Shown here piece by piece: positions 1 to 52,729 of a DNA stretch of 64,000 bases. The notes under the pieces were generated by a model. That model ran no database searches. It saw nothing but the letters and a program-made list of their open reading frames with translations, and was not told where the DNA came from. The position numbers were made by a program, and so were the translations under genes. This DNA is from Candidatus Avelusimicrobium sp. (GTDB lineage Bacteria > Elusimicrobiota > Elusimicrobia > Elusimicrobiales > Elusimicrobiaceae), in assembly GCF_051874775.1 (NCBI RefSeq), contig NZ_JBJEGE010000002.1, forward strand, positions 1,697 to 65,696, written 5' to 3'. The stretch's first letter is position 1, and each line of letters starts with the position of its first letter.

Positions 1-509
1 TCTCCGCCAGTAAAGATACAGGCTCCACAGGCGGAGAAGCCAGCGCCGTCATCAATGTGCGGCTGCTGCCGGAATCGGATCCGGACGAATTTTTCGAGAA
101 TCTCAAAAAACTGTTTGAAGGAAACGAAAACATCAGTCTGGAAATTCTGGAACGCCCCCAGACGCCTTTTCCCGCGCCGATGGACGGCACGGATGAATTG
201 TTTGCGTCCATTTCTAAAACGGCGGGCAAATTGCTGCCCAATGCCATTACAGTACCGGGGATGAGTCCTGCTTCTGGCGACAACGAGTTTTTACGCAAAA
301 AAGGCGTTATTACCTACGGATTGGGGCCGGATATGGATCCGCTGGCCGACAACACCGCCCACACACCGGATGAATTTATCAGCGAACAAGATTTTTTCAA
401 CCAGCTCCGGTTTATTTCCGGAATCGTATTTGATTTTGCCTACGGCAAAGACTTACTTCCGCTTACGCCACTAAACACACTTCCCACAAACGATACGGCC
501 ACAAACTAA
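1..509 (+). CDS. M20/M28-type metallopeptidase, C-terminal part (5' end lies outside the window)
   Basis: Frame 3 is open from the window edge (..GGEASAVINVRLLPESDPDEF..). The C-terminal block GPDMDPLADNTAHTPDEFISEQDF resembles the M20 family C-terminus. A terminator follows. Confidence 0.55.
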   Translation, partial: SASKDTGSTGGEASAVINVRLLPESDPDEFFENLKKLFEGNENISLEILERPQTPFPAPMDGTDELFASISKTAGKLLPNAITVPGMSPASGDNEFLRKKGVITYGLGPDMDPLADNTAHTPDEFISEQDFFNQLRFISGIVFDFAYGKDLLPLTPLNTLPTNDTATN

Positions 510-2925: not shown

Positions 2926-3465
2926 CTAATCTGTATAGCAACTTCCGCCGTTTAATCGTCCGGTAATACAAGCATCTGATTTTCCCATACCTATTTTTTT
3001 GCAAACTGCGCCGGATTTATTGTCCTCACATTGGCGATGGCCATTACAATATCGTAAAACATAGGTATCATTGGAATTTCTCCGAGTTGCGCTGGGGGCA
3101 TATGTACTGTCTCCGCACCCGGCATCGTGAACATAATACGACCAATTTTTTGTATTAAACTCGCTTCCAGAAGAAACAACTTGTCCATTTTCATCAGTAA
3201 ACGACAAATCCAACTCCGCCCAAGAGTTTGCTCCGTTTGGATTTCCTCCCATTATATAGACAGAATTAGCCGCATAAATAGATTTTAACGTGGACCACGC
3301 TTCCGTCGCACGGCTTTTTTCCACCGCTTTCGTGTACTGCGGCAGCGCTACCGACGATAAGATACCAATGATAAGTACAACAACCAACAATTCTATCAGC
3401 GTAAAACCTTTGTTACTGGATCCTGAAATAAATTCAGGATAACGGCTAAACATAAAACCTTTCAT
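2926..3465 (-). CDS. Prepilin-type N-terminal cleavage/methylation domain protein (pseudopilin / type IV pilin-like)
   Basis: KG|FTLIELLVVVLIIGILSSVALPQYTKAVEKSRATEAW. ATG at 3465 sits 9 nt after GGAGG; the track start at 3480 overlaps that RBS. The C-terminus is Cys-rich. Confidence 0.85.
   Translation of the reverse strand: MKGFMFSRYPEFISGSSNKGFTLIELLVVVLIIGILSSVALPQYTKAVEKSRATEAWSTLKSIYAANSVYIMGGNPNGANSWAELDLSFTDENGQVVSSGSEFNTKNWSYYVHDAGCGDSTYAPSATRRNSNDTYVLRYCNGHRQCEDNKSGAVCKKIGMGKSDACITGRLNGGSCYTD
3420..3440. repeat. Perfect hairpin repeat ATCCTGAA-N5-TTCAGGAT inside the pseudopilin leader-peptide codons
   Basis: Identical 21-mer at 15417-15437. Flanked by 10-nt direct repeats TAAAACCTTT at 3402-3411 and 3453-3462. 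Confidence 0.85.
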
Positions 3466-3488
3466 TTTATTTTCCTCCATTTAAAAAG

Positions 3489-3520
3489 GTCATTCTGAGT
3501 CGCTTCTGCTCAGGATCTAC
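3489..3520. repeat. Hairpin repeat of the same family (GTCATTCTGAG-N9-CTCAGGATCTAC) just upstream of the pseudopilin RBS
   Basis: 8-bp stem with one mismatch. Homologous element at 15482-15525 upstream of the second pseudopilin gene. Confidence 0.7.
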
Positions 3521-3582
3521 CGATTTTAACGCAATAAACCACAACCGAAAGAGCCCACGCAAAAAACCTACGGAATAACCCT

Positions 3583-3610
3583 ATCATATCAAAAAAAAAA
3601 AACGGGTCAA
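3583..3610 (-). promoter_or_regulatory. Sigma70-type promoter for the pseudopilin gene
   Basis: Minus strand: TTGACC, then a 16-nt T-rich spacer, then TATGAT. Same architecture at 15587-15613. Predicts a ~110-nt 5' UTR. Confidence 0.5.
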
Positions 3611-15083: not shown

Positions 15084-15458
15084 CTAAACGATACGCCCGC
15101 ACACAGAGGAATTGCCGGCGTTTTTTTCGCACCCTGCAGGGAGCGAAAGCGTTAAATCATCCATATTCTCCGTATACGTTCCGTTTTCTAAGAAATACAA
15201 CTGTTGCGCGCGCCAAAGCGCATTTGTTTGCGCCACCAATTCCGCCGCACGCGTTTTGACTACCGCACGCTGATATTGCGGCAACGCCACGGCGGACAAA
15301 ATACCGATGATAAGCACAACCACCAACAGTTCGATCAGCGTAAAACCTTTAATCGTATGGTCATACTGAACTTGTTTCAGTATCCAAGCGGAAGATTTTC
15401 TTTTATTAATGGCTGGATCCTGAAATAAATTCAGGATGACGGCACTAAAACCTTTCAT
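15084..15458 (-). CDS. Prepilin-type N-terminal cleavage/methylation domain protein (pseudopilin), possibly truncated
   Basis: 44-aa leader, then KG|FTLIELLVVVLIIGILSAVALPQYQRAVVKTRAAEL. GGAGAA RBS 7 nt upstream of the ATG. Only 124 aa, against 179 aa for the paralog at 2926-3465. Confidence 0.8.
   Translation of the reverse strand: MKGFSAVILNLFQDPAINKRKSSAWILKQVQYDHTIKGFTLIELLVVVLIIGILSAVALPQYQRAVVKTRAAELVAQTNALWRAQQLYFLENGTYTENMDDLTLSLPAGCEKNAGNSSVCGRIV
15363..15437. repeat. Two perfect hairpin repeats inside the pseudopilin leader-peptide codons
   Basis: ATACTGAA-N5-TTCAGTAT (15363-15383) and ATCCTGAA-N5-TTCAGGAT (15417-15437). Flanked by 10-nt direct repeats TAAAACCTTT at 15341-15350 and 15446-15455. 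Confidence 0.85.
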
Positions 15459-15481
15459 ATGCGTTTTCTCCTGTCAAAAAA

Positions 15482-15525
15482 GTTATCCTGATGAGTCTGG
15501 CGGCCTGCAGGGTCTCAGAATCTAC
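15482..15525. repeat. Hairpin repeat family member just upstream of the pseudopilin RBS
   Basis: GTTATCCTGATGAG..TCTCAGAATCTAC. Positional homolog of 3489-3520, followed by the shared block ATCTACCGnTTTTAACGnAATAAACCA. Confidence 0.6.
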
Positions 15526-15554
15526 CGCTTTTAACGAAATAAACCATAAAAGGG

Positions 15555-15584
15555 AGATCCCGAGCAGAAACTTCTCGGAATGAC
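15555..15584. repeat. Hairpin repeat family member in the pseudopilin 5' UTR
   Basis: GAGATCCCGAG-CAGAAACTT-CTCGGAATGAC, an 8-bp stem with one mismatch. Confidence 0.6.
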
Positions 15585-15586
15585 TT

Positions 15587-15613
15587 ATGTTATCAAAAAA
15601 AAAAACAAATCAA
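15587..15613 (-). promoter_or_regulatory. Candidate sigma70 promoter for the second pseudopilin gene
   Basis: Minus strand: TTGATT, then a 15-nt T-rich spacer, then TAACAT. Positional homolog of 3583-3610. The -35 lies in the rsmA terminator stem. Confidence 0.35.
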
Positions 15614-18150: not shown

Positions 18151-18254
18151 ACGTATATGATAGAAAAAAGGGAAGAACGGGGCAAATGAAAAAGGGGGTT
18201 AGGAAGGGATTATCCCGTAGGGGCGTAGTAGGAAATTCCGCTGTTATTAATTAA

Positions 18255-18286
18255 GTCATCCCCGAGTGATTTTGTCGGGATCTGAC
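18255..18286. repeat. Hairpin repeat family member
   Basis: GTCATCCCCGAG-TGATTTTG-TCGGGATCTGAC, imperfect stem, intergenic. Confidence 0.6.
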
Positions 18287-18292
18287 TCCGCT

Positions 18293-18331
18293 AAAAAAAG
18301 CATCCCCGAGAGGAAAACTCCTCTCGGGGAT
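18293..18331 (-). terminator. Rho-independent terminator after the 1260-aa gene; stem belongs to the same repeat family
   Basis: ATCCCCGAGAGG-N6-CCTCTCGGGGAT perfect 12-bp stem; on the minus strand it is followed by GCTTTTTTT. Confidence 0.9.
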
Positions 18332-52604: not shown

Positions 52605-52639
52605 TAAAAAGTGATCCCGTAAAGTTTCTATACGGGATC
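52605..52639 (-). terminator. Rho-independent terminator after the GGDEF gene
   Basis: GATCCCGTA-N9-TACGGGATC; on the minus strand it is followed by ACTTTTTAT. Confidence 0.8.
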
Positions 52640-52729
52640 TATTACCTAGAGAACAATAGCTTTCAGATTAAAACCCTCTAGAATGACTACCGGCATAGAC
52701 TTAAGAACGGTATTTTACTTATAACTCAT

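Follow-up and report, generated by a model that had tools for sequence, protein, structure and literature searches.

A probable in-frame insertion of an NTS/dRS3-like hairpin doublet in the leader of a type IV pilin gene of Candidatus Avelusimicrobium

RESULTS

Two pilin genes with hairpin repeats in their leaders

The stretch of DNA analysed here (the window; 64,000 nucleotides of contig NZ_JBJEGE010000002.1 of Candidatus Avelusimicrobium sp., family Elusimicrobiaceae) contains two type IV pilin or pseudopilin genes, A and B, whose leader peptides are encoded in part by hairpin-forming DNA. Gene A (15084–15458, minus strand) was delimited from the open reading frame (ORF) list, Pfam and TIGR matches, its translation and comparison with the homologue P0001. 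Its product has the features of a type IV pilin or pseudopilin, namely G−1, F+1, E+5 and a hydrophobic N-terminal helix in the segment KG↓FTLIELLVVVLIIGIL (the arrow marks the predicted prepilin peptidase cut), and Pfam N_methyl and TIGR02532 match it at residues 37–59, across the G↓FTLIEL segment (PF07963 E-values of 8.8e-8 and 2.2e-8 for the two pilins; TIGR02532 above the cut-off). The gene starts with an ATG (15458–15456), 9 nt downstream of a GGAG ribosome-binding site (15468–15471). The ATG abuts a 10-mer, AAAGGTTTTA (15446–15455, minus strand), which recurs 105 nt downstream at the cleavage site (15341–15350, minus strand) as the codons K-G-F-T(1) of KG↓FTLIELL. Cleavage is predicted between 15345 and 15344, giving a leader of 38 residues including G−1, MKGFSAVILNLFQDPAINKRKSSAWILKQVQYDHTIKG↓FTLIELL.... 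Because the GGAG lies upstream of the first ATG and neither gene A nor gene B has a start codon between the element and the cleavage site, translation would have to read through the element.

Between the two copies of the 10-mer lies a 95-nt segment (15351–15445, minus strand) that, judging from its sequence, its folding and the analogy with loci L001 and L003 below, appears to be an inserted, inverted hairpin doublet with a 25-nt spacer; with the second repeat copy, it adds 35 codons to the leader. Hairpin 1 (CGTCAT-CCTGAA-TTTAT-TTCAGG-ATCCAG; 15413–15442, minus strand) runs forward on the coding strand and hairpin 2 (GGTCAT-ACTGAA-CTTGT-TTCAGT-ATCCAA; 15358–15387, plus strand) forward on the non-coding strand, and the covariance model described below scored them at 35 bits (E = 4.6e-8) and 29.4 bits (E = 2.2e-6), respectively. 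Their cores are perfect 8-bp stems with 5-nt loops, ATCCTGAA-TTTAT-TTCAGGAT at 15417–15437 (and again at 3420–3440, in gene B) and ATACTGAA-ACAAG-TTCAGTAT at 15363–15383, and the chance expectation of each 21-mer in the window was 0.00. The 10-mer occurs four times in the window, always at genes A and B, against an expected 0.5, and none of 100 shuffles reached four copies. Folding of the insert gave −34.6 kcal/mol for 140 nt as RNA (z = −3.3 against shuffles) and z = −4.0 for 98 nt as DNA; the doublet can fold into two small hairpins or a single long one. The repeated 10-mer, its spacing in both genes and the two hairpins thus lie, letter for letter, where the original prediction, made from the sequence alone, had placed them.

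Gene B (2926–3465, minus strand; Pfam N_methyl and TIGR02532 matches) has a leader of 20 residues including G−1, MKGFMFSRYPEFISGSSNKG↓FTLIELL..., with a single hairpin (CGTTAT-CCTGAA-TTTAT-TTCAGG-ATCCAG; 3416–3445, minus strand; covariance model, 27.8 bits) flanked by AAAGGTTTTA at 3453–3462 and 3402–3411, 51 nt apart. Translation of both genes verified that the shared hairpin is read in different frames, gene A giving ILNLFQDP and gene B YPEFISGS. The hairpin block that had been described as almost identical in the two genes is indeed shared, though not as an isolated island, as alignment of the 5' regions revealed homology over a run of 11–12 T residues with a GATA block, the ~125-nt 5' untranslated region (UTR), the leader and the first ~30 mature codons. 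Compared with its counterpart in gene A, the gene B region is 4 nt longer before the hairpin and 58 nt shorter after it, the missing part including hairpin 2, and the net difference of 54 nt restores the reading frame. Since the whole 5' module is homologous, genes A and B appear to share one insertion history, by descent or gene conversion, rather than two independent events.

The 5' UTRs of both genes contain a further inverted pair of related hairpins. That of gene A consists of a family hairpin (GTCATTCCGAG..CTCGGGATC; 15553–15586, minus strand; covariance model, 32.3 bits, E = 2.9e-7) and its inverted partner, a long-loop hairpin read from the sequence (GTTATCCTGATGAG-tctggcggcctgcagggt-CTCAGAATCTAC; 15482–15525, plus strand), which the short-loop model missed and whose loop matches the ..GGCGGCCCGCAGGG.. 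variant of L003, L005, L011 and L018. The hairpin of the gene B 5' UTR (3487–3520, plus strand; covariance model, 26.5 bits) has a degenerate partner at ~3543–3573 (minus strand; read from the sequence). A run of 11–12 T residues followed by GATA(A/T) stands at ~15587–15612 and 3580–3607 and likewise upstream of the L001, L003 and L018 pilins; this block resembles a promoter shared by several species (−35-like TTGAyy, ~16-nt spacer, TAnnAT). The repeat TTTTTTGAyA occurs on both sides of the gene A 5' UTR doublet.

The ORF of gene A ends at an in-frame TAG (15084–15086, codon 125), beyond which the homologous frame runs on to 14871 with 70 more open, homologous codons. P0001, which is 96% identical and carries the same leader on an intact 195-aa pilin, has Tyr at this site, and P0002, from another sample, has a stop at the same place as gene A. 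The TAG is either a shared nonsense allele or the end of a truncated pilin. An exact-protein look-up with the gene A product returned no record.

Gain or loss of hairpin units at the pilin site

Loci L001 and L003 are conspecific, being syntenic and 97–98% identical over 20 kb. The L001 pilin has an empty site, with the leader MKNVTAGRLGG↓FTL, and L003 has an extra 144 nt at the same pilin site, made up of two inverted hairpins with their flanks and bracketed by a 9-nt duplication, TTTGGCGGT. Each allele recurs in a second sample (L002 and L004), and a related unit with a decayed duplication occupies the same site in L018. Pilins of other assemblies exhibited the same pattern at slightly shifted positions, with the flanking duplications AAAGGyTTTAC (L207), GGGTTT(T)ACC (L208) and TTTACGCTT (L209). 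Cleavage-site codons are duplicated (9–11 nt) in at least five separate cases. These comparisons show that strains of one species differ by the gain or loss of hairpin units at the pilin site, and that a short duplication flanks the unit. The difference in hairpin content extends beyond the leader to the whole upstream spacer (L001 9805–10025 and L003 9540–10169), making this region a hot spot for structural change.

At the pilin insertions, 4 to 33 nt separate the repeat from the end of the hairpin. Most of the 97 doublets in all the sequence collected are extragenic and come from other phyla; of the 97, 4% have flanking repeats of 8 nt or more, against 1.5% in mismatched controls, and this excess consists largely of the pilin cases. 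With no general excess of flanking repeats, the pilin duplication is not explained by a general transposition mechanism, and it can be called only a putative target-site duplication. Either the duplications decay where they are unprotected, or entry into the pilin leader takes a special route. An origin of the duplication by unequal recombination between pilin paralogues was considered and rejected, as no remnant of a ribosome-binding site or ATG precedes the second copy. The 9-nt loop consensus of the hairpins, (A)AGGTTTTAG, resembles the duplicated pilin target, AAAGGTTTTAC (window 15341–15352), either by coincidence or as a clue to target choice.

Variation of the leader follows stem pairing

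Among the 120 best homologues, a set biased towards query-like leaders, 52 have a leader of 20 residues or longer, and recognisable hairpin translations occur in 41 of the 52. The commonest reading is V[IM]LNLFQx ... [IM]LKQVQxD, and alternative-frame leaders from the same DNA read RHAELVSAS, RHAEFISAS or HSVLDTES (general form RHAE..SAS). TGA interrupts one frame of the forward hairpin, the third, and two of the reverse hairpin, and these are not seen; only stop-free frames are represented. Residue pairs compatible with stem pairing were M-H (11), I-D (7) and I-N (4) in hairpin 1, against three incompatible pairs, and I-D (8), M-H (7), I-Y (5), I-N (1) and T-G (1) in hairpin 2, with no incompatible pair. 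Both hairpins together thus gave M-H 18, I-D 15, I-N 5, I-Y 5 and T-G 1 against 3 incompatible, and the pairs M-D and I-H were never found among the homologous leaders. Variation in the leader follows the pairing of the stem and not the peptide, which bears out the earlier claim of nucleotide-level conservation: two reading frames of the hairpin are in use, and the residues that vary are just the ones on which stem pairing depends.

The hairpin ends GGAATGAC and GTCATG can provide an in-frame ATG (L011 9800–10000; P0015 and P0059). In L011, where no ATG precedes the hairpins, initiation may start inside the element, with the stem drawing the ribosome-binding site near.

A widespread, mostly extragenic hairpin family

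An initial hairpin rule (stem of at least 7 bp, one mismatch) was too loose, with 141 matches against 108 in shuffles, and was followed by a stricter rule and then by a covariance model built from 25 Elusimicrobia hairpins. The strict scan of the Elusimicrobia loci defined an invariant GTC head (25/25 aligned hairpins), a stem beginning AT(y)C, a tail of ATCT or ATCC, and loops that are 9 nt long and near (A)GGTTTTAG, 5 nt long, or long with GGCGGCCCGCAGGG. In six of the eight stem pairs both partners vary, a count that is circular in that the sequences were picked as perfect hairpins. In the window, the covariance model detected seven copies (E < 2e-5), of which five lie at pilin genes A and B, and 310 kb of related loci yielded 39 more. 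Extragenic copies in the window lie between a 1260-aa ORF and a TPR ORF (18253–18285, plus strand), with a second palindrome beside it at 18302–18331, and upstream of a 1707-aa surface-protein-like ORF (52609–52642, plus strand), with a weak partner at 52656–52689 (minus strand).

A metagenome scan with GTCATNCTGAAYTTRTTYCAGNATC matched at least 120 contigs, with GC contents from 25% to 71% among the matches listed. The two unconstrained (N) positions were complementary in 141 of the 142 matches listed, showing that the family keeps its stems through compensatory change. Across phyla the layout is CGTCAT-stem-loop-stem-ATCYRG, mostly outside genes: open frames of at least 150 codons hold 16% of the metagenome matches listed, against 76% of random sites. 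Typically, the hairpins form an inverted doublet composed of a GTCAT-hairpin, a spacer of 10–45 nt and a hairpin-ATGAC. No pilin was found beside the 142 matches listed, apart from one spurious pilin-motif match. BLAST located the doublet on plasmids of Sphingobium, Novosphingobium, Sphingomonas, Sulfurovum and Treponema. The Sulfurovum match lies under an annotated coding sequence, and the others are in unannotated spacers. Further copies of the element, on which the original prediction depended, are thus present in the window, in related genomes and in other phyla. Rfam returned no family at gathering thresholds for the whole window or at permissive E-values for the locus and five related loci, the permissive search yielding spurious microRNA-like hairpin matches only. 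DNA-uptake sequences, parS-like or CIRCE-like sites, CRISPR repeats and attC sites were rejected as candidates, given that the stems vary freely and only flanks and loops are fixed.

The long-loop variant keeps ..GGCGGCCCGCAGGG.. while its stems vary (L003 9823–9868, L005 3437–3478, L011 9926–9971, L018 3056–3101 and window 15482–15525), and this conserved loop could extend the helix. Mosaic clusters with ~70-nt spacing occur at L018 2312–2798 (seven hairpins) and L020 10561–10885 (five); in them, orientation switches and the stem types CCCGA, CTGAA and CTGAG are mixed, resembling BIME/NIME arrays and implying several specificities in one genome. Doublets of other taxa also directly precede an RNase P RNA gene and adjoin a tRNA gene (L087 924–1025 and 1077–1345; L107 1280–1360 and 1440–1512).

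Concentration of hairpins at pilin 5' ends

The association with pilins was assessed in 373 kb, comprising the window and 20 Elusimicrobia loci, with 44 pilin N-termini and 46 model matches. Half of these matches (23) stand no more than 400 nt upstream of a pilin cleavage codon, and 16 no more than 150 nt, against 4.5% and 1.9% of random positions, respectively. When the hairpins were grouped by eye into 16 clusters, 10 fell within 800 nt upstream of a pilin, where ~9% are expected (binomial probability ~2e-7, a hand estimate), and one more lies directly 3' of a pilin. The hairpins thus concentrate at pilin 5' ends in Elusimicrobiaceae. They are inside the ORF in 6 of the 44 pilins (14%), which is a less biased estimate than that from the homologues, since the homologue list is biased to query-like leaders. 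The layout of a UTR doublet plus a leader doublet is found in the window and L209 and, less regularly, in L003 and L012.

Resemblance to targets of Ssn nucleases

In Neisseria, the repeat NTS (CGTCATTCCCGCGMAVGCGGGAATCYRG), a longer form of dRS3, is the target of SsnA, and degenerate Ssn-related motifs (SRM) flank ssnA, which codes for a 94-aa GIY-YIG enzyme (Chenal et al., 2025, PMC11893778). SsnA binds the hairpin as single-stranded DNA only, in one orientation, and cuts just upstream of it; the flanks are CGTCAT...ATCYRG (3' end ...GGGAATCYRG), in which GTC and the 3' C are critical, the C after the palindrome being the base most critical for binding (PMC11893778). NTS repeats cluster beside surface-protein genes, and only 2% of them are intragenic in N. 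meningitidis (PMC11893778).

The head (H)GTC(W)(Y) is present in hairpin 1 (CGTCAT) and hairpin 2 (GGTCAT) and, with one change, in gene B (CGTTAT), and the C just 3' of the palindrome, with its tail CYRG, corresponds to ATCCAG, ATCCAA and ATCCAG in hairpin 1, hairpin 2 and gene B, respectively; the head and tail of hairpin 1 equal the published NTS flanks exactly (CGTCAT...ATCCAG). By these marks of sequence, the hairpins of genes A and B are shown to belong to an NTS/dRS3-like family. Furthermore, in three metagenome contigs from other taxa, inverted hairpins located with the covariance model bracket an ORF of 96–103 aa with a single GIY-YIG domain (PF01541, E = 3e-15 to 4e-11), at 3313–3342(+)/3679–3708(−) in L108, 580–609(+)/956–985(−) in L182 and 254–283(+)/650–679(−) in L123. 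The L182 hairpins share the CTGAATTTATTTCAG core with those of genes A and B. Relatives of the L182 nuclease are mainly from Pedobacter and other Bacteroidota, the closest named one being from Pedobacter, and no Elusimicrobia protein was found in this search. The repeat family thus appears to flank small GIY-YIG (Ssn-type) nuclease genes and to have spread as gene-less hairpins and doublets across many phyla. In L123 (~650–800), tandem partial repeats (GAAACAAGTTCAGGGTGAC) follow the GIY-YIG gene on its 3' side, and partial hairpin heads are stacked on its 5' side.

DISCUSSION

Considering these results, we think it likely that the leader of gene A contains an inverted doublet of NTS/dRS3-like (SRM) hairpins that was inserted in frame, is translated, and is removed together with the leader. 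The original prediction of a REP/MITE-like (repetitive extragenic palindromic or miniature inverted-repeat transposable) element with a repeat resembling a target duplication holds as regards a palindromic hairpin family with further copies. The extragenic copies have no consistent flanking repeats, and the class of the element is more precisely an inverted doublet of the Ssn-nuclease type. We propose the following scenario. The doublet would have entered the first codons of a pilin ORF, duplicating ~10 nt of its target, and the copies that lay in a stop-free frame with the G↓F site downstream would have survived. Translation would start at the first ATG and pass through the element in whichever frame is stop-free, and prepilin peptidase would cut the extended leader at G↓F, removing all residues upstream of F+1 and leaving the mature pilin unchanged. 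The element may survive at this site, one of few intragenic ones, because the leader is cut off. The earlier proposal that the insert is tolerated for this reason is supported, with cleavage itself predicted: the homologous leaders use two frames rather than one conserved peptide, copies are numerous elsewhere, and no start codon lies past the element. At the pilin gene's 5' edge, each strand would, when single-stranded, offer the nuclease one oriented site that faces outward. If SsnA is taken as the guide, single-stranded intermediates may be cut at the edges of the unit, and by analogy with Neisseria, such cutting would modulate recombination or transformation at the pilin 5' edge; the mRNA hairpins would be a by-product.

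Several points weigh against this scenario. Both the start codon in use and the cleavage of the leader are predicted. Because of the in-frame TAG, the gene A copy may be non-functional. Flanking direct repeats among the 97 doublets are no commoner than in controls. The published SRM string, HGTCWYN(0-2)YYVSBRHN(0-5)WNVSBRGN(0-2)RNCYNB, had no match in the window and matched none of six test hairpins. This string, which does match the published NTS consensus, needs G/C-rich stems and short loops; it fails on A/T-richer or long-looped stems, and the present hairpins are therefore relatives of the family, not members by its current definition. Phmmer found no Ssn-like GIY-YIG gene in the window or the sampled Elusimicrobia loci (~0.37 Mb, ~20 genomes). 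The best PDB relative of the bracketed GIY-YIG proteins was a weak UPF0213 match (E = 0.006).

A more active role for the same hairpins is possible, though we give it a low probability. Ssn-type hairpins may be targeted to, or selected at, the pilin 5' boundary as single-stranded DNA cleavage marks that govern recombination between paralogues, transformation or gene conversion, and through the flanking duplications the unit could be lost and later acquired again, which would toggle leader length and expression. Each Elusimicrobiaceae pilin gene has a near-identical N-terminal coding block.

Alternatively, the hairpins may have been selected as mRNA structures that set the translation rate or mRNA stability of the pilins, the resemblance to a DNA family being secondary. 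This explanation, which is compatible with an in-frame NTS/dRS3-like insertion, seems unlikely to be the principal one. The 5' bias of the hairpins somewhat favours an mRNA role: they are strongly concentrated in pilin 5' UTRs and leaders, the layout of a UTR doublet followed by a leader doublet recurs (regularly in the window and L209), and in all cases read the leader hairpin starts at or beyond ~+20 from the ATG, clear of the initiation footprint. The folding z-scores of −3.3 and −2.9 point the same way. However, in unrelated phyla these same hairpins lie outside genes and without a pilin in the vicinity, they are found in either orientation and on both sides of a nuclease gene, and the characterised nuclease binds single-stranded DNA, not RNA (PMC11893778).

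A classical MITE, moved by a DDE transposase with a 9–10-bp target-site duplication, would account for the terminal inverted repeats of ~25 nt, for the 9–11-nt direct repeats at five pilin insertions together with one empty site, and for the TTTTTTGAyA repeats around the gene A 5' UTR doublet. We nevertheless consider it very unlikely, as the 97 doublets have no excess of flanking repeats and the distance from repeat to hairpin varies from 4 to 33 nt. Furthermore, the stems differ between copies while flanks and loops are constant, unlike recent copies of one transposon, and the sole gene found between inverted hairpins encodes a GIY-YIG nuclease.

A REP/REPIN element moved by a RAYT (IS200/IS605-type Y1) transposase is more doubtful still. 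Oriented hairpins, inverted doublets and alternating clusters (seven hairpins in L018, five in L020), mostly extragenic, are what such an element would give, but the head is GTCAT instead of the conserved GTAG, the bracketed gene is of the GIY-YIG and not the Y1 type, and a Y1 gene did not turn up in the sampled DNA, in which no search was aimed at Y1. Least credible is a genuine long, type IVb-like leader kept for a peptide function with incidental hairpins, since the one-frame reading V[IM]LNLFQ..[IM]LKQVQxD shared by many homologues gives way to another frame in others (RHAELVSAS, HSVLDTES, YPEFISGS), the variable residues co-vary as base pairs and not by chemistry, the segment is missing in a conspecific strain (L001), and the sequence is common outside genes. 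At least one direct test speaks against each of these three readings, namely the DDE-type MITE, the REP/RAYT element and the peptide function.

Both the hairpin family and its nuclease have been described before, as have in-frame palindromic insertions, in Rickettsia (PMC10969869). In the literature, we found no description of this family inside ORFs, in a cleaved prepilin leader, recurring across many Elusimicrobiaceae pilins and clustered at their 5' ends, and searches on the hairpin DNA, its peptide translations and Elusimicrobium pilin leaders gave nothing relevant. The present findings suggest that a cleaved leader peptide can be a safe landing place for a structured DNA repeat, which would explain why many Elusimicrobiaceae pilins have uncertain start codons and leaders that are oddly long, variable and 'type IVb-like'. 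They would extend the Ssn-nuclease hairpin family to a new phylum and an intragenic niche and tie it to type IV pilin genes, much as NTS cluster at surface-protein genes in Neisseria, making the role of such repeats in shaping recombination at surface-gene families testable in a second lineage. Leader copies in different frames, with residue covariation driven by base pairs, also offer a natural case in which nucleic-acid structure constrains a translated sequence.

Compared with known systems, the family is closest in form to NTS/dRS3/SRM of Neisseria and many other bacteria, with which it shares an oriented hairpin with a CGTCAT head, a palindrome from ATyC.. and an ATCYRG tail, a length of 20–50 nt, high copy number, a mostly extragenic location with copies beside surface-protein genes, and inverted copies bracketing a ~95-aa single-domain GIY-YIG gene. 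It differs in that the stems here are A/T-richer (CTGAA) or the loops are 9 nt or 19–21 nt long, so that the published string fails. Copies also lie in frame inside ORFs, in a cleaved leader, against the 2% of intragenic NTS in N. meningitidis, and the association is with type IV pilin genes specifically; the nuclease of this lineage is proposed by analogy.

Rickettsia palindromic elements (RPEs) are likewise palindromic repeats that survive as in-frame insertions in protein-coding genes (PMC10969869). Compared by description, RPEs are ~150 bp long, lie in internal, surface-exposed parts of unrelated metabolic proteins and are kept in the mature protein, whereas the present element lies in a segment predicted to be removed. 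Rickettsia is among the SRM-rich genera (PMC11893778), which is a lead only as to whether RPEs are related. REP, BIME and REPIN elements share the oriented hairpins, the inverted doublet unit, the mosaic clusters and the placing of a gene between its own repeats; unlike REP/RAYT, the enzyme here is of the GIY-YIG rather than the HUH-Y1 family, and there is no GTAG head. Correia elements and MITEs are also short inverted-repeat elements close to genes, able to fold into hairpins in the mRNA and to change expression, but Correia elements have fixed termini and a TA duplication, whereas here the stems vary and the extragenic copies have no consistent duplications. Finally, the leaders resemble those of type IVb pilins in having 20–60 residues before G↓F..E5; unlike in type IVb pilins, their length is due to an insert of repeat DNA whose frame and presence vary, and not to a conserved leader sequence.

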